Source: a phage. Taken from it: a stretch of DNA of 64,000 nucleotides. The DNA lies in the sequence record PZ386963.1, one strand, 5' to 3'. The position numbers were made by a program, and so were the translations under genes. Below the pieces are notes generated by a model. The model was not told where the DNA came from. It ran no database searches and was given only the letters and a program-made list of their open reading frames with translations. Positions 5,853-63,556 of the stretch are shown here, in pieces (position 1 is the first letter of the stretch; each line of letters begins with the position of its first letter).

Positions 5853-6086
5853 TTAAAGATGTAAGTCAACATTAATACGTTCACCCTTAAGGACTCCTGT
5901 ACGGTCTCTTGCAATCTTACCGTCAACGATAAGGATATGCGCAGCCCTTAAAGCCTCACGATTAAAACCTTTTAAGAACTTACTAGGCATCACTACAATG
6001 GACATCTCCTGAATCAACTCTGGAGTATAGCAATTGTCGTGAAGTTGCTGAATAACGTCTGCAAGTGTCATTTTTGATGTCTCCAA
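5853..6086 (-). CDS. Hypothetical protein
   Basis: 77-aa ORF. Confidence 0.35.
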   Translation of the reverse strand: METSKMTLADVIQQLHDNCYTPELIQEMSIVVMPSKFLKGFNREALRAAHILIVDGKIARDRTGVLKGERINVDLHL

Positions 6087-6277
6087 TACTCAATGTCAAT
6101 AAGTTCTTGTGCAATGCTTTTCAGATTACCTTTCAAGAAAACCTTCTCAGAACCTGAAAGAGATGAATTGTCAATTAACCTGTTCATTCTCTCAAACAAC
6201 TTCTGCTTACGGTTCTTGATAGTTTCCTTTGAAGCACCTTTCATCATCGCTGCATGGGTTCTTCCACGGTGGCTCAT
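6068..6277 (-). CDS. Hypothetical protein
   Basis: 69-aa ORF. Confidence 0.3.
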   Translation of the reverse strand: MSHRGRTHAAMMKGASKETIKNRKQKLFERMNRLIDNSSLSGSEKVFLKGNLKSIAQELIDIEYWRHQK

Positions 6278-6328
6278 AAGCCCTCCTATACAAGATATAG
6301 TATAAGGTACTCTTCCCTGAGCACCTTG

Positions 6329-6856
6329 TCAACTTAGTTTTGCAAACTCTCCGTGGAGTTTTATAGCAGCTTCACAGTAAGCTTTATGGGCTTCTTCTGG
6401 TGTGTCATAGTAGCCTAATGACATCTTTTTACCTTTATAGCTTATTTGTGCAACCCACCTACCAGACTTCTTCTTCAGGCTTACACCCTTATAGCCTGAC
6501 TTATTGGTGGATAGTTTGCTTTTATTCCAAGCACTTTGGTAGTCATCTGCTTCTCTTAAGTTTGCAATCCTGTTATCAAGGGAGTCCCCATTAATATGGT
6601 CAATAACACCTTTCGGTAACCTACCATACACATACAGCCATGCGAGTCTGTGCGCTTTATGTGCTTTCTTGTCAAAATAGATAGTAATCTGTTTATGACC
6701 AGTTGAGTCAATCTGGATGCTCCCCGCTACCTGTCCTGCGTACTGAGTATTAAAAACTTTAACAGCCTTTGAGTCGCCCTCTCTACGAAGCCAAGTAAAG
6801 ACCCCTGTTTCGGGGTCATAGTGTAGTAGTTCCTTTAAACGTTCTTGTGTAATCAT
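6329..6856 (-). CDS. HNH homing endonuclease with AP2-type DNA-binding domain
   Basis: DHINGDSLDNRIANLR HNH motif plus YKGVS...RWVAQI...YDTPEEAHKAY AP2-like segment; likely start at internal MITQ. Confidence 0.7.
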   Translation of the reverse strand: MITQERLKELLHYDPETGVFTWLRREGDSKAVKVFNTQYAGQVAGSIQIDSTGHKQITIYFDKKAHKAHRLAWLYVYGRLPKGVIDHINGDSLDNRIANLREADDYQSAWNKSKLSTNKSGYKGVSLKKKSGRWVAQISYKGKKMSLGYYDTPEEAHKAYCEAAIKLHGEFAKLS

Positions 6857-6866
6857 TTTGTCACCA

Positions 6867-9566
6867 TTAATGCACTTCCAACCACGACTTACCAACCTTA
6901 CCAGTACCAGTTACCAGTGTTTCACTCTTTAGCCCTAAGTTCTTAGAGGCTTGTCCGTAATACCAATCAGTGACAGCCTTCACCTCTGCCGTCATACTTT
7001 CTGGACATTCCCAACTTGTCTCGTCGTGATAGGAGCACAATAAACGAGCACCTATGGCTGGTTTACGACCGTTCAACTTCATCAAACCTTCGTCAATCAT
7101 ACGACGGCAAGCAAGGTTAATTGCCTCGTTCTGAATCTGACTTTCCGAACCCATGAGCAAATAATTCAATAACTTATGTGGAGATTTACACCACAACCAA
7201 GCTCCAGCAACCTTTACAAAACCCCCTTTAGAGATTGCAGCAGTCTTACCAAACACCTCTTCAAGTGCCTTTTTAGTTGCTTTGTAGTCAGCTTCCAAGT
7301 CATCTAACAGCTTCTTAATTTTAGGCAAACGAATAAAGTAAGTCTGTTTAGTCAGCGCACCTTCCTGAGTAGTTGCAGCTTTAATCGTCTTAGCAAACTT
7401 CTCATCACCTGCACCGAACAGCAGTGCATAGATACCATTCTTAGCTTTCTTACGACCTTTGCTAATCTCATGGAGAAGATTCTCATCCTGAGTAGCTCGA
7501 CAAGTCAAGATGTCCTGCTCATCGTTCAAACTAAAGTAGATACTGTTCAGTGTATGCGCATCAGTCCCTGAATAGACAACGTACAGGTCATTCTCAGAGT
7601 CATAGCGAAGGTACTTATCAATCTCTGGGTTGAGGTACTCATCAAAGTGTTTGCAGTAATAGCGTCCATCTTCTTGACGAATGAACTCAATCTCTTCTTT
7701 ACCTTGCGTTACCGCTTTGGTGAAGTCTTTGTCACCCATAAAGTTACAAAGAAGAACTAGCTGGGCTGAGTTCATATCGACAGAGACAACGTTAGTACCT
7801 TCCTCACAAATCCACACTGCCCTCATCGGTTCTCCATAGACAGCAGCACCAGATGGTACGTTTACAATACCATATTGTGTCATACGTCCAGTTGAAGTAC
7901 CAAACACCATTGCACCAGCACTAAGGCGACCATCAGGACGAATCTGGTTCAACCAACCTTTTTCATCATCCTTTGAGTTCTCAATAGTTCTGCGTCGGTG
8001 CATCAAAGTATAGTACTTAGCAATCTTCTGTCCAAGTTCACCTTCAATCGTATCATAAGATGATTCAGTAAGTTTTGGTGAAGTACGGATTAAGCAAGGC
8101 TCAAGCAAGTCTGTGTATTTCTTCACAGACCAGTTATGCTCAATGTACTGTACACCTTCATGCTCAACATAGCTCAAACCACACCGCTCAACCATTTCCT
8201 GCCACTTAGGATGCTTTGTAATCATCTTTTTATTGTCTTTGAAACGACAAACTTTGACAGGGCGACCATCTGAGTCTTTCTTGTAGTTCCAGTCATCTGG
8301 AATCCAACCAACTGATTTCAAGTAGTCTTTAACAACTGCTACCTGAGTCATACGAGAAACTTCAAACTCAATTGGCGTATATGGTGCATCAATCAAACCT
8401 GTGTAGCGACTCGACTCAAGCTCAAAGTGGTTAACAACGTGACTGTTATAGTACTTCACAGTTTTAACTGTTTTTACTGGCTTCCAGTCTTTGCATTTCT
8501 TACCAATCTTTGCGTTCAACTCATTGCAAATTGCACGAGCATCCTTCATTGCTACAAACCCTTCCTTGTATTCTTCACCAGTTACAGTGTTGGTTGGTGT
8601 ATAGCAATTCCTTTTTTCAATGTTAAAAATCTTTGTAGTTGGCTTACCAAATGGCTTGATTTCATATGTTTGCATCTCACCATTACGTACCTGCTGACGA
8701 TACTTTGTCTTAGGGTACTTGGTAATTCTTTTCAGTCCATCTGCATGACCAAATGTTTCAACATACTCATTCCAAGCTTTTGCAAACTCTTCTCCAGTGA
8801 CTTTACCTTTGGTCTTAATAGTTGGAGGAAGATGTGGTTCAACCTCTGAAGCAAGCTCATTAGTCAATTTGTCAAGTTCCTTCACATGGAACTCCATAAG
8901 CTCTTTATCAGCTTTCCAGCCATTAATAGCTTGTTGACTCATCCAGAAAGATGTCTCTTTAGCTCGCATGTAAGTCTCATAAGTGTCTATACCACACTTC
9001 TTAAGCTTGAGATACTCGTTATCAAGTGCCCGTTTAGTTTTGGCGTTAATACGGATATCTTCTACAACACGAGTGAAGATTTCTGCATTCCACACACCCC
9101 AATGTTCAATCTCTGGTTTACGGACACCAACACGAGCACCCCATGCAGCCAAACCATGAGCACCTTTATAACCCTTTGGAGTTGGTCTATCCATCCACTG
9201 AACACGAGACTGGATAAGAGAATCCTGAAAGAAATTACTCCACGGCTTACATTTTGGATTATCAAAGTTCCATAAATCAGGTGCAATGTGATTGAAAACC
9301 CACCAGTCATAGCCGAGACCATTATGGATGCAAAGACGTTTTGCCTTTAACGCAAATTCAACACCTTCACGTAAGCCGCCCTTGATGTACTTGGTATACT
9401 TGTGACCGAGGATAGGCTCATCTGTAAAGACCCATACAGGAGGCTCTTCATCATCAGATTTATAGTCTGCAAAAGCCATTACGTGAACTTTAGTGAACTC
9501 AAGGAGTAAACCATCAGTCTCTGTATCACCAACTAAATGTAAGTTTTTAAAATCTACGTTTTCCAT
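6867..9566 (-). CDS. DNA polymerase, family A, with 3'-5' exonuclease domain
   Basis: DTETDGL exo motif, family-A palm motifs; start placed at second ATG (MENVDF) behind GAGGGAG RBS. Confidence 0.9.
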   Translation of the reverse strand: MENVDFKNLHLVGDTETDGLLLEFTKVHVMAFADYKSDDEEPPVWVFTDEPILGHKYTKYIKGGLREGVEFALKAKRLCIHNGLGYDWWVFNHIAPDLWNFDNPKCKPWSNFFQDSLIQSRVQWMDRPTPKGYKGAHGLAAWGARVGVRKPEIEHWGVWNAEIFTRVVEDIRINAKTKRALDNEYLKLKKCGIDTYETYMRAKETSFWMSQQAINGWKADKELMEFHVKELDKLTNELASEVEPHLPPTIKTKGKVTGEEFAKAWNEYVETFGHADGLKRITKYPKTKYRQQVRNGEMQTYEIKPFGKPTTKIFNIEKRNCYTPTNTVTGEEYKEGFVAMKDARAICNELNAKIGKKCKDWKPVKTVKTVKYYNSHVVNHFELESSRYTGLIDAPYTPIEFEVSRMTQVAVVKDYLKSVGWIPDDWNYKKDSDGRPVKVCRFKDNKKMITKHPKWQEMVERCGLSYVEHEGVQYIEHNWSVKKYTDLLEPCLIRTSPKLTESSYDTIEGELGQKIAKYYTLMHRRRTIENSKDDEKGWLNQIRPDGRLSAGAMVFGTSTGRMTQYGIVNVPSGAAVYGEPMRAVWICEEGTNVVSVDMNSAQLVLLCNFMGDKDFTKAVTQGKEEIEFIRQEDGRYYCKHFDEYLNPEIDKYLRYDSENDLYVVYSGTDAHTLNSIYFSLNDEQDILTCRATQDENLLHEISKGRKKAKNGIYALLFGAGDEKFAKTIKAATTQEGALTKQTYFIRLPKIKKLLDDLEADYKATKKALEEVFGKTAAISKGGFVKVAGAWLWCKSPHKLLNYLLMGSESQIQNEAINLACRRMIDEGLMKLNGRKPAIGARLLCSYHDETSWECPESMTAEVKAVTDWYYGQASKNLGLKSETLVTGTGKVGKSWLEVH

Positions 9567-9823
9567 TTTTACTCCCTCTAAAATCATTAACCTCATACAT
9601 TACTGCAAAAAATTATAAAAAGCAAGTTGACAATGCACTTGACAAGGTGTTAATCTTTGCGAAGTGGGTTTTTACTTAAAAGGTTACTTAACAGTTTAAC
9701 TATACAGATACTTTAAAACTCTTAAAAGATTATTTAATAGCTTTTAAAAAGCTTTAAAGTATAACGTATAGAATACGTTAAGATAAAAGATTAAAACTTA
9801 ATAGTTACTTAAAAGAGGCTTAC

Positions 9824-58248: not shown

Positions 58249-58325
58249 CTCTGTTTAGCTCAGCTTGGTAGAGCGTTCCGTTTGGGGCGGTAAGGCCGGA
58301 GGTTCAAGTCCTCCAACAGAGACCA
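58249..58325 (+). tRNA. tRNA-Pro (anticodon TGG), CCA encoded
   Basis: Cloverleaf by eye: acceptor CTCTGTT/AACAGAG, D-arm GCTC/GAGC, loop TTTGGGG, T-loop TTCAAGT. Confidence 0.7.
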
Positions 58326-58332
58326 AATTAAT

Positions 58333-58410
58333 GTTCCAGTAGACAAAATGGTAAAGTCACCACTCTTTCAAAGTGGATATCTGAGGGTTCAAATCCCTTC
58401 TGGAACGCCA
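58333..58410 (+). tRNA. tRNA-Glu (anticodon TTC), CCA encoded
   Basis: Acceptor GTTCCAG/CTGGAAC, anticodon stem CCACT/AGTGG, loop CTTTCAA. Confidence 0.65.
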
Positions 58411-58416
58411 GTTTTG

Positions 58417-58492
58417 ACAGAAGACCAATTACAGCAAACTTAATCTTATTCATCTGAAGGTAAATCGGACAAAGAAGAGATTTGGTCTGGTC
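58417..58492 (+). ncRNA. Conserved inter-tRNA hairpin element, copy 1 (candidate small RNA or processing signal)
   Basis: ACAGAAGACCAATTACAGCAA at 5' end pairs with TTGGTCTGG at 3' end. Confidence 0.35.
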
Positions 58493-58502
58493 ATTAAGAA
58501 TT

Positions 58503-58578
58503 GCGGGTATAGAGAAAGGGCGTCTCACATGTCTCATTAGCATGGTATCGGCAGGTTCGACTCCTGCACCCGCCTCCA
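58503..58578 (+). tRNA. tRNA-Met/Ile2 (anticodon CAT) with unpaired position 1-72
   Basis: D-stem GAGA/TCTC, anticodon stem CATGT/GCATG, loop CTCATTA, T-arm GCAGG/CCTGC. Confidence 0.55.
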
Positions 58579-58583
58579 AATTT

Positions 58584-58650
58584 ACAGAAGACCGTTTACA
58601 GCAATATTTATTAAATTTTTAGCGGAAAAATTGAAAGATACGGTCTGGTA
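58584..58650 (+). ncRNA. Conserved inter-tRNA hairpin element, copy 2
   Basis: ACAGAAGACCGTTTACAGCAA ... ACGGTCTGG. Confidence 0.35.
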
Positions 58651-58661
58651 ATACTAAACAT

Positions 58662-58738
58662 GGTTAGGAAGCACATAAGGTATGTGCGGTCGCCTGTTAA
58701 GCGAATGGCACAGGGTTCGAATCCCTGACTAACCGCCA
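58662..58738 (+). tRNA. tRNA-Asn (anticodon GTT)
   Basis: D-stem GCAC/GTGC, loop CTGTTAA, T-arm CAGGG/CCCTG, 3' end ACTAACC-G-CCA. Confidence 0.65.
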
Positions 58739-58807
58739 AATTTAGGAGAGAAGCGATTGCTCACCGATTTGTAAGGTGCAAGTCCTTAGCCTGAATAGAA
58801 ATTAAAT

Positions 58808-58895
58808 GTGTCGTTATCCCGTAGATGGTAGCGGTGGGGACTGTAAATCCCTTGTCATTGAGACTCGGTAGGTTCGACTCCTACACGGCACACCA
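58808..58895 (+). tRNA. tRNA-Tyr (anticodon GTA), long variable arm
   Basis: Acceptor GTGTCGT/ACGGCAC, loop CTGTAAA, 15-nt variable arm, T-loop TTCGACT. Confidence 0.65.
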
Positions 58896-58900
58896 ATAAA

Positions 58901-58978
58901 GGTTATGTAGTTTAATTTGGTTAAAATACTCCCCTGTCACGGGAGATGATGAGGGTTCAAATCCCTTCGTAACCGCCA
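58901..58978 (+). tRNA. tRNA-Asp (anticodon GTC)
   Basis: Acceptor GGTTATG/CGTAACC, anticodon stem CTCCC/GGGAG, loop CTGTCAC. Confidence 0.65.
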
Positions 58979-59038
58979 ATTTTGAGAGGGCTATTTAGCC
59001 CCTCCCTTAAAGAGTTCTTACGAGTATTCTTTAAAGGA

Positions 59039-59113
59039 GCAGAAGACCAAATACAGCAAGTTACTTAAAATTTCAAGCCAATTTAATTTTGAAAAATTTA
59101 AAACTTGGTCTGG
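59039..59113 (+). ncRNA. Conserved inter-tRNA hairpin element, copy 3
   Basis: CAGAAGACCAAATACAGCAA ... TTGGTCTGG. Confidence 0.35.
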
Positions 59114-59125
59114 CTCAACAAATTT

Positions 59126-59258
59126 ACAGAAGACCGTTTACAGCAAAACTTAAACAATCTATTTCTCGGTAAAGAAAAGGTGAAGGTTCGATTCCTTCAC
59201 TCGGCAGATGTCGAGTTGGTGTAATGGTAGCACTTAAGATGATAAACAACGTTCTGGT
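59126..59258 (+). ncRNA. Conserved element copy 4 containing tRNA-like T-arm and D-arm fragments
   Basis: ACAGAAGACCGTTTACAGCAA ... GAAGGTTCGATTCCTTC ... GTTGGTGTAATGGTAGCAC ... AACGTTCTGG. Confidence 0.3.
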
Positions 59259-59402
59259 AATTATCTTTGTAGATAAGTTATTAAGCTTACCTGTGAGTAT
59301 GCGACCACAAAGGGTGAAAGGGTAAATTCTAGATTTAAACCCAAAAAGGCACATCGCTACAGACCTTAAGCAAGTCTGGGTAGCTTATCTACAAAGATAA
59401 TT
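59257..59402 (+). ncRNA. Candidate structured RNA closed by a 17-bp long-range inverted repeat
   Basis: TTATCTTTGTAGATAAG (59261-59277) is the exact reverse complement of CTTATCTACAAAGATAA (59386-59402), enclosing ~108 nt. Confidence 0.35.
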
Positions 59403-59406
59403 TAAT

Positions 59407-59482
59407 GGAAGTGTAGCAGAATGGTGATGCGGCAGACTTTTAATCTGACAGGCGATGGGTTCGAATCCCTCCACTTCTACCA
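59407..59482 (+). tRNA. tRNA-Lys (anticodon TTT), weak T-stem
   Basis: Acceptor GGAAGTG/CACTTCT, loop CTTTTAA, T-loop TTCGAAT; two T-stem mismatches. Confidence 0.55.
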
Positions 59483-59486
59483 AAAT

Positions 59487-59563
59487 GGTTCAGTCGCAGA
59501 TAAGGTAATGCAAGGGTCTCATAAGCCCTATGAATGTGGGTTCGAATCCCATCTGAACCTCCA
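59487..59563 (+). tRNA. tRNA-Met/Ile2 (anticodon CAT)
   Basis: Acceptor GGTTCAG/CTGAACC, anticodon stem AGGGT/GCCCT, loop CTCATAA. Confidence 0.65.
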
Positions 59564-59565
59564 AT

Positions 59566-59640
59566 TGTGGGTTAGCATAAATGGTAATGCAAACGGCTGA
59601 TAACCGTTAGAAGAGGGTTCGATACCCTCACCTACAACCA
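59566..59640 (+). tRNA. tRNA-Ile (anticodon GAT)
   Basis: Acceptor TGTGGGT/ACCTACA, anticodon stem AACGG/CCGTT, loop CTGATAA. Confidence 0.6.
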
Positions 59641-59655
59641 ATTTCAATAAAGTTG

Positions 59656-59684
59656 TTGACATTGAAATGTGACTACTTTATAGT
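59656..59684 (+). promoter_or_regulatory. Sigma70-like promoter inside the tRNA cluster
   Basis: TTGACA-17-TATAGT; flanked by ATTTCAA/TTGAAAT inverted repeat. Confidence 0.5.
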
Positions 59685-59977
59685 AACTAAAATACTTCAT
59701 AATATGTATAATTCAAACACCAATACATGAGCGTTAGACGTAACACAATGTGGGGAAATTTGTTGTACATATTCTGAATAGTTTTCGTTGCGTAGCGTCT
59801 ATTTTGCAAATTTAAAATAAATGCAAACGACAATGTTTTTCTGGCAGTAGCTTGATAGGCTAAACACCAGTGAGGTCTTCCAATCCCTCATCAAAGAATT
59901 TGGCGTACTCGCCCACGGTATGATTAATAAGGTGGGCATCTTTAAGGGCTTTCTAAGAGAGTCTTTAAAGATAATTA

Positions 59978-60059
59978 CGGGGCGTATCTCAGCGGTCTTC
60001 TAAACCGCCGTTAACCGAGTAAGTGGAGTATGCGGGTTCGAGTCCTGCCGCCTCGACCA
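59978..60059 (+). tRNA. Atypical tRNA-like gene (possible Arg, anticodon TCT); D-arm not resolvable
   Basis: Acceptor CGGGGCG/CGCCTCG, stem-loop GCGGT-CTTCTAA-ACCGC, T-arm GCGGG/CCTGC, CCA encoded. Confidence 0.4.
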
Positions 60060-60202
60060 ATTTAGTTAGCAGATTACTTAGACGACCTAAGCGGGTCTTC
60101 CTGTAGGGAGGTGGTCTGTATCTCATGTTTTCCAGAACATGTAAATAATCTGAGAAGGGGCTTTACAGTGTTGAGATAATACGGTAAGCTTCGAATTATA
60201 GT

Positions 60203-60285
60203 ATGGGACGATGTTAAGACTCTAAGGCATGAGCAACGGCCTCCAAAACCGTTTCAAAGGGGTTCAACTCCTCCGTCCCATGCCA
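60203..60285 (+). tRNA. Atypical tRNA-like gene with Trp anticodon arm (CCA); ~7 extra nt between acceptor and D-arm
   Basis: Perfect acceptor ATGGGAC/GTCCCAT, D-arm CTC/GAG, loop CTCCAAA, T-loop TTCAACT. Confidence 0.45.
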
Positions 60286-60298
60286 AAGTCTTATTATG

Positions 60299-60388
60299 GG
60301 TAGGTAGCGGCTAATGGTAGCCAAACTGTCTTGAAAACAGTTGCCACTGTAGAGATACGGTGAGGGTTCGACTCCTTTACTTACCGCC
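60299..60388 (+). tRNA. tRNA-Ser (anticodon TGA), long variable arm
   Basis: Acceptor GGTAGGT/ACTTACC, anticodon stem ACTGT/ACAGT, loop CTTGAAA, 20-nt variable arm. Confidence 0.65.
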
Positions 60389-60543
60389 TAATAAGATTTT
60401 AAAGCCAAGCTTCATTCGGATGTTGCTTTGGTATCCCTCGTGTATTGTCGTACACACTGATAAAGCACCTAGTAGGTGTCACGGAGAAGAGATAATATCA
60501 AGCTCTCCAAAGGTTCTAGTCACCGGATTAAACAAGACTATGC

Positions 60544-60566
60544 AAAGACCTTTTTAGGTCTTTTTA
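60544..60566 (+). terminator. Rho-independent terminator-like hairpin within tRNA cluster
   Basis: AGACC-TTTTTA-GGTCT followed by TTTTT. Confidence 0.5.
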
Positions 60567-60644
60567 GAGGGCTTCTAAGGTTATTACAGCTTGTTGTGGA
60601 ACCTTGTTGCTTAGGTTCTTAGAAGTTCTCTAAAAAGATTTAAT

Positions 60645-60722
60645 GGGAGATTGATGGTAATTGGTAAACCTACCATCCTTAGAAGTTGGTGTTTGAGGGT
60701 TCGAATCCCTTGTCTCCTACCA
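60645..60722 (+). tRNA. Atypical tRNA (possibly Leu, anticodon TAG; short variable arm)
   Basis: Acceptor GGGAGAT/GTCTCCT with wobble ends, loop CTTAGAA, T-arm GAGGG/CCCTT; D-arm irregular. Confidence 0.45.
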
Positions 60723-60729
60723 AATTAAT

Positions 60730-60805
60730 GCAGGTGTAGCAAAATGGTTATGCGGCTGACTCTTAATCAGTAAGACGACGGGTTCAATTCCCTCCACCTG
60801 TACCA
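60730..60805 (+). tRNA. tRNA-Lys (anticodon CTT)
   Basis: Acceptor GCAGGTG/CACCTGT, D-stem GCA/TGC, anticodon stem GCTGA/TCAGT, loop CTCTTAA. Confidence 0.6.
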
Positions 60806-60811
60806 GACATT

Positions 60812-60887
60812 GGGGTCATAGTTTATATGGTTAAAATTCGAGTTTTGCAAACTTGGGAACTGAGTTCAATTCTCAGTGACTCCACCA
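60812..60887 (+). tRNA. tRNA-Ala (anticodon TGC)
   Basis: Acceptor GGGGTCA/TGACTCC with G3:U70 pair, loop TTTGCAA, T-arm CTGAG/CTCAG. Confidence 0.7.
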
Positions 60888-60893
60888 ATTAGT

Positions 60894-60968
60894 GCATCCA
60901 TAGTTTAAACGGGAAAATTACAGTCTTCCAAACTGAGGTTGAGGGTTCGATTCCCTCTGGATGCTCCA
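60894..60968 (+). tRNA. tRNA-Gly (anticodon TCC)
   Basis: Acceptor GCATCCA/TGGATGC, loop CTTCCAA, T-arm GAGGG/CCCTC. Confidence 0.65.
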
Positions 60969-60974
60969 AACAAT

Positions 60975-61051
60975 GCTGCTTTCGTATAATTGGCTATTAC
61001 ACATCCCTTGTAAGGATGGAGATGCGGGTTCAAGTCCTGTGAGCAGCACCA
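60975..61051 (+). tRNA. tRNA-Thr (anticodon TGT)
   Basis: Acceptor GCTGCTT/GAGCAGC, anticodon stem CATCC/GGATG, loop CTTGTAA. Confidence 0.65.
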
Positions 61052-61146
61052 ATTCAGAGGTCAAGTGAAAGACCGCTGGTGTCAACTGAAGACCGTAACA
61101 AATTCCACGGAGTTGAGTTAGCGGCACAACTTCAGACCTCTTTCAC
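61052..61146 (+). ncRNA. Inter-tRNA spacer with long-range inverted repeat (candidate structured RNA)
   Basis: AGAGGTC (61056-61062) pairs with GACCTCT (61134-61140). Confidence 0.3.
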
Positions 61147-61221
61147 ACTCGCTTAGTTTATATGGTAAAACATCACCCTTACAAGATGAAGAAAAAGGTT
61201 CAAGTCCTTTAGTGAGTACCA
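61147..61221 (+). tRNA. tRNA-Val (anticodon TAC)
   Basis: Acceptor ACTCGCT/AGTGAGT, D-stem GTTT/AAAC, loop CTTACAA, T-arm AAAGG/CCTTT. Confidence 0.6.
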
Positions 61222-61222
61222 T

Positions 61223-61300
61223 GTTCCAGTATCCCAATTGGCAGAGGATGCAAGCTCAAACCTTGTATTAGTGACGGTTCGAATCCGTCTTGGAACACCA
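61223..61300 (+). tRNA. tRNA with anticodon CAA (Leu) but short variable arm
   Basis: Acceptor GTTCCAG/TTGGAAC, anticodon stem GCAAG/CTTGT, loop CTCAAAC, T-arm GACGG/CCGTC. Confidence 0.5.
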
Positions 61301-61305
61301 ATTTT

Positions 61306-61381
61306 GCAGGATTAGTTCAAATGGATAGAGCAACAGTCTACGAAACTGTTAATAGGGGTTCGAATCCCTTATCCTGCGCCA
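61306..61381 (+). tRNA. tRNA-Arg (anticodon ACG)
   Basis: Acceptor GCAGGAT/ATCCTGC, D-arm GTTC/GAGC, anticodon stem ACAGT/ACTGT, loop CTACGAA. Confidence 0.7.
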
Positions 61382-61399
61382 GATAAGCAAGAGGAATTT

Positions 61400-61642
61400 A
61401 TGCAAACATTAACCGTCGTTGAACATGAAAATTCCAATAGTATTGAGTTTGTAAGGGTTCCCACTATAGATACCCACATTTTCTTAAAAGTCGGATGGGA
61501 ATGCGACCCAATAAAAGTAGAAAGATTTATTGGTCATTGCTTTGGTGGAAGACAACTTAAAAGTATCAATTTTGAGACAATGTTACCAGAAAGCTCAGAA
61601 ACAAATAATAATGCTTACCTCCTTACGAGGGTTAGACAATGA
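61400..61642 (+). CDS. Hypothetical protein embedded in tRNA cluster
   Basis: 80 aa behind AAGAGGA RBS. Confidence 0.45.
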   Translation: MQTLTVVEHENSNSIEFVRVPTIDTHIFLKVGWECDPIKVERFIGHCFGGRQLKSINFETMLPESSETNNNAYLLTRVRQ

Positions 61643-62196
61643 GATACTTAAAATATGCTTCATGGATTTTCTTAGCTTTACTAGACCCAATTGCAGCAAT
61701 CCTAGCAGTTATCTTAGCACCTTTCGTAGTTCCATTCTACAGTGAGAAGAAAGGGCATCTACCTTTTGGATTCAGATGGATGGAGACCTATGACAACCCA
61801 ATTGATGGTGATGAAGGTCACGTTAAAAGATGGGCTAAGGTTAGAAAGATTGGTAAGCTGGGTGTCTACATGCAGAGAGTCGGATGGCTCTGGAGAAACA
61901 AAGCTTATAACTTCTCTTACCATGTATTAGGAAGAGATGTAAAAGATGTTACTAAGTGGAAAGGTAATATCAACGTAAGTTCTGACCCTGAAGATAATCA
62001 GACAGGTTATCTCCTAATGTGGAACAACAATGCTTGGGGATTATTCGCTTTTATTCCGTCAATTAAAGTCTTTGGTAAACAGTTTTACTGGAGAATCTAT
62101 GTTGGATGGAAACTAAAAAGTGTTGTCCCAGAAGAAAGAGCATTCTCAAGGGAAAGAGTTATGTTGGCATTCTTTATTCATCCACTGAGAAAGTAA
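61639..62196 (+). CDS. Membrane-anchored hypothetical protein embedded in tRNA cluster
   Basis: 185 aa, hydrophobic N-terminal ~30 aa, Trp-rich; ATGA overlap with previous gene. Confidence 0.45.
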   Translation: MRYLKYASWIFLALLDPIAAILAVILAPFVVPFYSEKKGHLPFGFRWMETYDNPIDGDEGHVKRWAKVRKIGKLGVYMQRVGWLWRNKAYNFSYHVLGRDVKDVTKWKGNINVSSDPEDNQTGYLLMWNNNAWGLFAFIPSIKVFGKQFYWRIYVGWKLKSVVPEERAFSRERVMLAFFIHPLRK

Positions 62197-62204
62197 AGAT
62201 TTAA

Positions 62205-62280
62205 AGGGGATTAGTTTACAAGGTTAAAACCTCGGTCTTTGAAATCGAAGAAGTTGGTTCAATTCCAACATCCCCCGCCA
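62205..62280 (+). tRNA. tRNA-Gln (anticodon TTG), position 1-72 unpaired
   Basis: D-stem GTTT/AAAC, anticodon stem TCGGT/ATCGA, loop CTTTGAA, T-arm GTTGG/CCAAC. Confidence 0.6.
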
Positions 62281-62282
62281 AT

Positions 62283-62361
62283 GCTCCATTACTCCAATTG
62301 GCAGAGAGGCCAGACTTAAAATCTGTGTTATGTATCGGTTCGAATCCGATATGGAGTACCA
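62283..62361 (+). tRNA. tRNA with anticodon TAA (Leu), short variable arm
   Basis: Acceptor GCTCCAT/ATGGAGT, loop CTTAAAA, T-arm ATCGG/CCGAT. Confidence 0.5.
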
Positions 62362-62366
62362 AATTT

Positions 62367-62442
62367 AGCGGTATAGCATAACTGGCAATGCAGCAGTCTC
62401 TGAAGCTGTCCTATTAAGGTTCAAATCCTTATGCCGCTGCCA
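62367..62442 (+). tRNA. tRNA-Gln (anticodon CTG)
   Basis: Acceptor AGCGGTA/TGCCGCT, D-arm GCAT/ATGC, loop CTCTGAA, T-arm TAAGG/CCTTA. Confidence 0.6.
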
Positions 62443-62473
62443 CTTCTAAGGGTTCTTACGAGAGTCCTTAAAT

Positions 62474-62549
62474 GTGGCCTTATCATAAATGGTAATGACC
62501 CATGCTGTGAACATGGTCTATACGGGTTCAAATCCCGTAGGTCACCCCA
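62474..62549 (+). tRNA. tRNA-His (anticodon GTG), discriminator C
   Basis: Acceptor GTGGCCT/AGGTCAC, D-arm TCAT/ATGA, anticodon stem CCATG/CATGG, loop CTGTGAA. Confidence 0.7.
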
Positions 62550-62554
62550 ATTTA

Positions 62555-62631
62555 TAGTCCAAGTAGCTTATATGGTTAAAGCGCGTGTCTGAAAAACATG
62601 AGAAGAGGGTTCAAATCCCACTGGACTACCA
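62555..62631 (+). tRNA. tRNA-Phe (anticodon GAA), irregular acceptor-to-D-arm spacing
   Basis: Acceptor TAGTCCA/TGGACTA, D-stem GCTT/AAGC, loop CTGAAAA, T-loop TTCAAAT. Confidence 0.55.
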
Positions 62632-62647
62632 ATTTCAAAGGTGCTTA

Positions 62648-63382
62648 ATGAAAGAGATGACAGAACAAGGTAAGGAGATTTTTAATCTCTTAAAAACCGG
62701 TAAAGGGTTTTCTAACCCACTTATTACTGGTGCAGCAGTTCTCGGTGGAACCGTAGCTGCCTCTACATCACTTGTAAGCTCTATTAGCTCTGTAACAGAC
62801 CCTACAATGAAGGAGAAGCTTGTTGCTGCTGGACTTACAACAGTCCTTCTAAACAGCTTTACAACAAGCCTGACAAGCACTACAGCAACTACTAAGACCC
62901 TAACAGACTATGGTCAAAAGTCTATTGATGAGTTTTCATCACGTATGCAGGTAGCAAAGGGGTACTCCAATGTTATGGGTGCAGCAGGAGAACAAGTTGG
63001 TTGTACACCATTCAGTGGTATTATGGGTGTTGCTACAGAGTACGGTCAGCAAGCTATTGGCATGATTAACAGCACACTAGACAGTGTTAACGGTGTGTTA
63101 AGTGATTTACAAGACGCTATTGATGAGGGTCTTGATACTGTTTCTGATTTAGCTAATCAGGCTGTTAGTAAGATTAATGAAGGTATCTCAAAGATTACAG
63201 CTTATGCAGATGAAGTTGTGCAGATGATTGAAGAAGAAGCTGCCCTTATTGCAGAGTACCTTAAAACGAATATCAATGGGTTCTTAGCAGGTATCTTACC
63301 AGACTGGTTTGATGATGCTTGTAAAACTGGTGTAATTGACACCATTGCAACACCAGAAATGAAGAGCGCATTACAGAAATAA
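62648..63382 (+). CDS. Ser/Thr-rich hypothetical protein embedded in tRNA cluster
   Basis: ATG at 62648 just after tRNA-Phe; 244 aa with low-complexity S/T segment. Confidence 0.45.
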   Translation: MKEMTEQGKEIFNLLKTGKGFSNPLITGAAVLGGTVAASTSLVSSISSVTDPTMKEKLVAAGLTTVLLNSFTTSLTSTTATTKTLTDYGQKSIDEFSSRMQVAKGYSNVMGAAGEQVGCTPFSGIMGVATEYGQQAIGMINSTLDSVNGVLSDLQDAIDEGLDTVSDLANQAVSKINEGISKITAYADEVVQMIEEEAALIAEYLKTNINGFLAGILPDWFDDACKTGVIDTIATPEMKSALQK

Positions 63383-63383
63383 T

Positions 63384-63476
63384 GGAAGATTAACCCTAAA
63401 AGGTAAGGGAGCAGTTTGCTAAACTGCCAGTAGCTGAGAAATCGGTGTACCAGTTCAAGTCTGGTATCTTCCTCCA
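63384..63476 (+). tRNA. tRNA-Ser (anticodon GCT), long variable arm
   Basis: Acceptor GGAAGAT/ATCTTCC, anticodon stem GCAGT/ACTGC, loop TTGCTAA, T-arm ACCAG/CTGGT. Confidence 0.65.
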
Positions 63477-63480
63477 ATCT

Positions 63481-63556
63481 GAATCCGTGACAGAAATGGA
63501 TATGTGCCTGTCTGCAAAACAGGTTTATAAGGGTTCGAGTCCCTTCGGATTCTCCA
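63481..63556 (+). tRNA. tRNA-Cys (anticodon GCA)
   Basis: Acceptor GAATCCG/CGGATTC, anticodon stem CCTGT/ACAGG, loop CTGCAAA, T-arm AAGGG/CCCTT. Confidence 0.65.

Follow-up and report, generated by a model that had tools for sequence, protein, structure and literature searches.

The open reading frame (ORF) at positions 6329-6856, on the minus strand of the phage DNA studied here, probably encodes a free-standing homing endonuclease that belongs to the widespread HNH-AP2 family of phages and homes via the 3' end of the adjoining DNA polymerase (pol) gene. For the window, i.e., the whole 64,000-nt stretch of DNA that was analyzed (record PZ386963.1), a first-pass annotation made from the sequence alone had already interpreted this ORF as a homing endonuclease gene, and the comparisons of sequences and predicted structures reported below support that interpretation. 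The gene is an ordinary, already annotated member of the HNH-AP2 family, with nothing new in kind. Relatives were detected by tblastn in 2,740 of 50,697 phage records (about 5%), a protein search returned at least 7,908 homologues, and the family was reportedly first noted in phages including Felix O1 itself.

In mixed infections, free-standing homing endonucleases located by essential replication genes skew inheritance and contribute to the mosaic structure of phage genomes, which is relevant to therapeutic or biocontrol cocktails that contain several Felix O1-like phages. The modest added value of the present analysis is a population picture that comprises the occupancy of the site, at least four to five interchangeable alleles, a candidate target region at 6867-7176, and a candidate link between the downstream HNH gene and pol introns without an endonuclease of their own in relatives. 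The allele series, the common 3' tail of the alleles, a serine variant at a catalytic position and the intron association are useful leads and, at the same time, variations on known themes.

Gene and genomic neighborhood

The phage represented by the window is a member of Felixounavirus (Felix O1-like, Ounavirinae), and the region is 96-97% identical to several genomes. The HNH ORF, denoted allele type A below, starts with ATG at 6856 and ends with a TGA stop codon at 6329-6331, encoding 175 amino acids (aa) on the minus strand, which the first-pass annotation had left unstated. Upstream on the same strand lies the family-A DNA polymerase gene (6867-9596; 909 aa, uninterrupted; PF00476, and phrog_17 at E = 5e-113), which is presumably the target or the cargo of the nuclease. 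The abutment of the HNH gene on the 3' end of pol, part of the original description, is borne out, the pol stop codon (TAA, 6867-6869) being separated from the HNH ATG by a spacer of 10 nt (6857-6866, minus strand) that contains a Shine-Dalgarno-like GGTGA at 6861-6865. A longer, TTG-initiated reading of the ORF (from 6895, 188 aa), which overlaps pol, is less likely.

A promoter and terminator scan placed no such site between pol and the HNH gene; its hits were not more numerous than those in shuffled controls, and it gave no support for a promoter of the HNH gene's own. Because no such signals were found between the two genes, their co-transcription is the simplest reading, and translation of the HNH gene would probably be coupled to that of pol. 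Within the HNH ORF, about 40 nt past its start, a GC-rich hairpin with a run rich in T behind it (GACCCCGAAACAGGGGTC TTTACTTGG; 6800-6817, minus strand) spans the codons of the DPETGVF motif and could be either a chance or a regulatory structure.

Near-identical HNH genes (95-97% at the nucleotide level) are present in GenBank, in dozens of closely similar genomes, under labels such as 'HNH homing endonuclease' or 'putative homing endonuclease', and tblastn revealed no HNH paralogues elsewhere within the 64-kb window. A function as a terminase-associated HNH protein (packaging helper) was considered and rejected: the gene is located between pol and small early genes and is missing in about half of the relatives.

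Among the small genes on the other side, the one just 3' of the HNH gene encodes a 69-aa protein of unknown function (6068-6277; phrog_5180) and is itself optional, being missing from RPN213 and O157 typing phage 11. Some relatives carry a 72-aa ORF (MTLSEIEVQLQCAGYSQKEIE...) that resembles a paralogue of the 77-aa ORF of the window (5853-6086) and has no match in Pfam. This ORF lies directly 3' of pol in the HNH-less phages UAB_69 (L003 3407-3625) and Sf19 (L013 3807-4025), and 3' of the HNH gene in fKMPT1 (L014 4013-4231).

Domain architecture and catalytic residues

The claim that this ORF encodes a free-standing HNH-AP2 protein is confirmed by profile searches. Pfam identified HNH_3 (PF13392) at aa 67-103 (E = 1.1e-15, 57.4 bits against a gathering cut-off of 24.8) and AP2 (PF00847) at aa 120-169 (E = 5.2e-14, 52.7 bits against a cut-off of 33.3), and the protein matched phrog_99, 'HNH endonuclease', at E = 1.4e-74. 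The beta-beta-alpha-Me nuclease core of the HNH_3 type, delineated by Pfam and by a profile of five alleles, thus maps to 6548-6658, and the AP2 DNA-binding domain, delineated by Pfam and by structure matches, to 6350-6499, both on the minus strand.

Searches of the PDB with the single HNH sequence returned AP2 structures only, the AP2 part matching WRI1, ERF96, AtERF1 and TEM1; I-HmuI (PDB 1U3E) was found only with the five-allele profile, at E = 3e-8 over residues 32-116. The AlphaFold2 model of the protein, built from 75 homologues, has a pLDDT of 95.3. Its best PDB match in Foldseek is 1U3E, I-HmuI, with a probability of 1.00 and coverage of the N-terminal two-thirds, and the best matches of the C-terminal third are plant AP2 domains, on which the AP2 part superposes at about 1.0-1.2 A over about 50 residues. 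The N-terminal half of the protein is accordingly predicted to act as an I-HmuI-like beta-beta-alpha-Me nuclease, and the C-terminal third would provide sequence-specific DNA binding.

Most of the catalytic site is in place. Residues D86 and H87 (codons at 6596-6601, minus strand), which correspond to D74 and H75 of I-HmuI, are each conserved in 120 of 120 homologues; N95, N99 (119/120), R101 and N111 (120/120; codon at 6524-6526, minus strand) are invariant or nearly so. The exception is the metal-ligand Asn or His that is expected at the end of the motif (N96 in I-HmuI). The aligned residue in the window protein is Ser108 (codon at 6533-6535, minus strand), with N111 following three residues on. 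This position holds Asn in 111 of the 120 homologues and Ser in nine, which are the closest clade of the window protein (62-95% identity) and one distant homologue (P0087). In I-HmuI, N96 is listed as catalytic together with D74 and H75 (PMC12724721). Since the canonical catalytic position is occupied by Ser, activity cannot be assumed, and the Ser108 enzyme could be weakened or inactive.

An HNH protein that is catalytically impaired or dead and is kept as a sequence-specific DNA-binding protein, with the polymorphism of the site being a relic of past mobility, is one explanation of these observations, which we consider unlikely. Such a protein might protect the pol allele of its own genome against rival homing endonucleases, or it might act as a repressor, and phage AP2 proteins that act purely as DNA-binding repressors have been documented (CasPRs, bioRxiv 10.64898/2026.02.23.707548). 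Selection bears on both readings. Between alleles of types A and A2 (see below), dN/dS is 0.15 for the gene as a whole, with lower values in the HNH core (0.08) and in AP2 (0.07). The nuclease core is under strong purifying selection; this is what one would observe for a protein that is used for something, catalytic or not, but a core constrained to the same degree as AP2 would be unexpected had catalysis been lost. Against loss of function, too, D86, H87, N95, N99, R101 and N111 are all intact, and the Ser clade is deep, while its site is still polymorphic in occupancy and the pol tract described below is still linked to it. Furthermore, metal binding could still be supported by the hydroxyl group of Ser108 or by N111, which is invariant and lies at a distance of one turn of the helix. 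Because the HNH core is still so strongly constrained, nuclease activity is likely to be retained, perhaps in an altered form, with Ser108 as the main uncertainty. Literature searches returned no biochemical or genetic data on the HNH proteins of Felixounavirus.

Occupancy of the pol junction

The insertion polymorphism that had been predicted for the junction downstream of pol was found: among the relatives, the site is occupied by the same gene, empty, or occupied by another allele. In a sample of 49 Ounavirinae genomes, drawn in even steps through all records that matched the junction region, about 25 carry an HNH gene at the pol junction, and the others have either an empty site or the 72-aa ORF. 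The comparison of this junction in related phages, suggested as a check in the first-pass annotation, thus shows that the gene does not occupy the identical position in all of them, the occupancy being about 50-60%. About 58 records hold the type A allele family at full length.

The boundaries of the insertion are clean. Alignment with the HNH-less relatives C600M2 and UAB_69 delimits an inserted block of 534 nt (6333-6866, minus strand). The empty site consists of the pol stop codon, 6 nt and the sequence TTGACAAGGTGCT, the right junction at which the common downstream flank starts, which is conserved in the window at 6320-6332 (minus strand). In C600M2, BPS15Q2 and O157 typing phage 11, this landmark follows the pol stop after 6 nt; in the window, the distance is 534 nt, and the HNH stop codon overlaps a TTGACA hexamer at the right junction. 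The cassette comprises a single ORF and encodes no integrase or transposase. Searches for direct or inverted terminal repeats and for target-site duplications around 6333-6866 yielded only short chance matches. Because the boundaries are exact and are accompanied by neither terminal repeats nor target-site duplications, the pattern at the junction agrees better with a homing endonuclease gene than with a transposon.

A diverged tract at the 3' end of pol

Immediately adjoining the cassette, the final 310 nt of pol (6867-7176, minus strand) form a tract that is diverged from HNH-less phages and linked to the HNH allele. Compared with C600M2, 16.5% of the positions in the tract are mismatched, and only 4.9% in the remaining 2,420 nt of pol; compared with O157 typing phage 11, the mismatch is 16.1% in the tract and 3.7% in the rest of the gene; the maximum-likelihood change point is at 7176 (Fisher p = 5e-12 for C600M2 and 3e-15 for O157 typing phage 11). 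For UAB_69, the corresponding values are 13.2% and 2.9%, with a change point at 7146. No diverged tract was detected against VpaE1_ev78, which has the same HNH allele. The tract includes pol motif C (YHDE, 7020-7031), and only four of its 103 codons differ in the encoded amino acid, the many nucleotide differences being mostly synonymous.

Phages with other HNH alleles have their own linked pol 3' haplotypes with other upstream ends (about 7107 for ekra). The haplotypes follow the allele type, and no fixed difference in the tract separates all HNH-bearing from all HNH-less genomes. One pol 3' haplotype is common to phages with allele A and allele C, the proteins of which are only 52% identical; therefore, the tract is not a simple mark of allele-specific immunity. 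Overall, the tract looks like the co-conversion signature expected of nick- or break-induced repair from a diverged donor, and the HNH target is likely to lie within roughly 300 nt of the pol stop (6867-7176) in HNH-less alleles.

Ordinary recombination with a distant relative could in principle generate such a tract without any nuclease. More generally, the HNH gene might be a passive passenger, with its presence or absence, its alleles and the linked tract all resulting from ordinary recombination among co-infecting Felix O1-like phages. The mosaic structure of the entire region between the pol and ligase genes, with optional small ORFs at 5853-6277 and an identity of 74-100% in the C-terminal part of pol, is compatible with this explanation. 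The divergence is, however, concentrated in the tract adjoining the cassette and disappears in the comparison with a phage that has the same allele; the identical site is occupied by five different members of one nuclease family; and the nuclease is maintained by purifying selection. The layout also matches that of experimentally proven free-standing homing endonuclease genes such as MobE (PMC2790892). Taken together, these observations make a purely passive gene improbable.

Allele series and a common 3' tail

Detailed inspection of 26 genomes, out of roughly 260 known for Felixounavirus, for HNH allele, pol haplotype and intron state revealed at least four further HNH-AP2 genes at exactly the position of the type A gene of the window. 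These are type A2 (REP8, ph2-2 and others; 86% aa identity to type A), type B (ekra and LNA1; 56%), type C (ASO1A and SPT-1; 52%) and type D (skuden and fKMPT1; 51%). Types A, B, C and D are 41-56% identical to one another, and all allele types consist of HNH_3 and AP2 in Pfam. Thus, different nuclease genes of the same architecture have replaced one another at a single site.

The divergence of the alleles ends abruptly near the 3' end of the gene. The last 22-23 residues of the protein are common to all allele types; in the window, this tail (6332-6400, minus strand) encodes aa 153-175 (PEEAHKAYCEAAIKLHGEFAKLS), and its nucleotide sequence is near-identical in four or five alleles. When the nucleotide sequences of 11 HNH-bearing genomes are aligned, divergent sequence gives way abruptly to near-identical sequence at the tail boundary, and dS between types A and A2 is 0.14 in the tail compared with 0.78-0.95 in the gene body. 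The tail probably belongs to the common flank, serving as a shared downstream recombination arm for allele replacement, and would itself be kept homogeneous by recombination.

Some copies of the gene appear to be decaying. In RPN213 (L015 3862-4353) and D1-2 (L017 905-1396), the A2 gene is N-terminally truncated or disrupted, leaving a 163-aa ORF whose start lies within the conserved DPETGVFTW motif.

A group I intron in pol of relatives

In REP8, pol is annotated as two coding sequences (CDSs), and a group I intron was detected between them (Rfam RF00028, 61.7 bits, E = 2.5e-14; L001 2171-2454). The intron is inserted in pol motif B (IYAL|LFGAGDE), 555 nt upstream of the pol stop; it is preceded by U and ends in G, and its excision restores the pol protein sequence of the window. 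It is present in at least 97 related phage records, in two forms: a 268-nt form that lacks an ORF and a form of about 803 nt that contains an Endonuclease_7-type (EndoVII-type) ORF. The intron-encoded proteins of JH2, EC6 and FSL SP-010 have been noted earlier (PMC6083498). Many GenBank records label the two pol exons as separate 'DNA polymerase' CDSs. Two records, MG065664.1 and MG065668.1, deposited as 'Campylobacter phage A132/A126', are about 89% identical to the Felixounavirus region, including the HNH gene and the pol intron, and their assignment to a Campylobacter host looks doubtful.

In the window, exon junction mapping from the relatives places the intron insertion site between 7423 and 7424 (minus strand), in pol motif B, where it is unoccupied; phages that lack both the HNH gene and the intron, C600M2 for instance, have exactly the same sequence there. 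An Rfam search of the window yielded no group I intron or other RNA family besides 24 tRNA hits, which form a cluster on the plus strand (58249-63553).

The state of the intron correlates with that of the HNH site. In the 26-genome panel, all nine genomes with the ORF-less intron carry a downstream HNH-AP2 gene (types A2, B and D; REP8, LNA1 and fKMPT1 included), compared with one of the seven genomes with the ORF-containing intron (Fisher p = 9e-4 for these two classes, with kinship ignored) and six of the 10 with an intron-less pol. This association fits, and suggests, either endonuclease turnover or trans/collaborative homing. The latter has been described for T4 MobE (PMC2790892), for the T3/T7 group and for the cyanophage endonuclease F-CphI (PMC10448857, PMC6083498).

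Applied to the window gene, collaborative homing would imply that the HNH protein cuts the intron insertion site in motif B of an intron-less pol and thereby carries an endonuclease-less intron along. The intron of the relatives, its ORF-less form found together with the HNH gene, and the HNH_3 protein encoded by gene 5.3 of T3, which likewise begins 10 nt past pol, all favor this possibility. The window, however, has a pol without an intron; with an insertion site that is the same as in HNH-less phages, the enzyme would cut its own genome; and the diverged tract, with its end at about 7176, does not reach the insertion site at 7423/7424, leaving a gap of roughly 250 nt. We therefore rejected cutting at the intron insertion site as the main model for the window HNH protein and consider collaborative homing by this allele very improbable.

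For the group as a whole, a broader interpretation can be offered tentatively. In Felix O1-like phages, the end of the pol gene may act as a landing pad with several alleles, on which at least five HNH-AP2 nucleases of different specificity would replace one another, with the pol 3' end and the invariant 70-nt tail as recombination arms; these nucleases may, in addition, have taken on the mobilization of the pol group I intron. If so, these phages would present a natural series of endonuclease turnover and of trans/collaborative homing, endonuclease-less introns occurring only alongside a downstream HNH gene would be explained, and the clade of the window would represent a variant that works with Ser instead of the canonical metal-binding Asn.

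Proposed course of homing

Under the preferred interpretation of the window gene as an active homing endonuclease gene, its product would, in a mixed infection, nick or cut the 3' part of pol in a relative that lacks the HNH gene or carries another allele. A strand-specific nick, as made by I-HmuI or MobE, is the default expectation, because the enzyme is expected to be monomeric and to have only one active site. In the recombinational repair that follows, with the HNH-bearing genome as template, the 534-bp cassette would be copied, and as much as about 310 nt from the 3' end of the donor pol would be copied with it. At the opposite end of the cassette, the exchange would be resolved in the common downstream flank or, if the recipient carries another allele, within the conserved 3' tail of the HNH gene. 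Differences in the tract, numerous and mostly synonymous, would protect the pol of the donor itself. From this course of events, we infer preferential inheritance of the cassette and of the linked pol segment.

Comparison with known homing endonucleases

The closest structural counterpart of the nuclease part is I-HmuI, from the DNA polymerase intron of Bacillus phage SPO1 (1U3E), which shares both nuclease family and fold with the window protein and, like it, is associated with a phage DNA polymerase gene. I-HmuI is said to have been characterized by Shen et al. in 2004 as a monomeric strand-specific nickase. The two enzymes differ in that I-HmuI is intron-encoded, with a helical C-terminal DNA-binding part, whereas the window HNH protein is free-standing and has AP2, and in that the metal ligand N96 of I-HmuI is replaced by Ser108. 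Genes for I-HmuI-like HNH proteins in Skunavirus lead to marker exclusion (PMC12724721).

In domain order, an N-terminal HNH followed by a C-terminal AP2, the window protein agrees with the HNH-AP2 family, termed 'IPA-HNH' by Barth et al. (2023) and a recognized family of homing endonuclease genes (Magnani et al. 2004, as cited in PMC10448857). Of the IPA-HNH genes, 29% are located next to DNA polymerase genes, and different homing endonuclease genes turn over at one location (PMC10448857). The IPA-HNH domains of ICP1 are too divergent to be recognized by Pfam HNH_3, whereas the window protein is a canonical HNH_3 match.

With respect to location, a close parallel is gene 5.3 of phage T3, which encodes an HNH_3 protein (E = 4.6e-19) and starts 10 nt past the stop codon of a family-A pol (L026 2658-2669), exactly as the HNH gene does in the window. 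Similarly to Felixounavirus, the phage group of T3 includes relatives with a group I intron in pol, with I-TslI as an intronic relative of the gene 5.3 protein. The T3 protein is only 101 aa long and lacks AP2, compared with 175 aa and AP2 in the window protein, and the similarity between the two is marginal (BLASTP E = 0.005 over 28 aa). Bonocora and Shub are said to have found in 2009 that the T3 enzyme cuts where the intron is inserted; for the window allele, such a target is unlikely. According to citations in two later papers, gene 5.3 encodes a functional free-standing homing endonuclease (PMC10448857, PMC6083498).

Finally, MobE of phage T4 is, like the window protein, a free-standing HNH endonuclease inserted between conserved genes, in this case nrdA and nrdB, and makes a strand-specific, recombinogenic nick in nrdB of phages that lack it; flanking markers are co-converted, and a nearby intron with a defunct endonuclease is mobilized (PMC2790892). 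The DNA-binding region and the target gene of MobE differ from those of the window HNH protein. In terms of mechanism, MobE is the best model available, for the window gene itself as well as for the way in which introns are distributed among its relatives.
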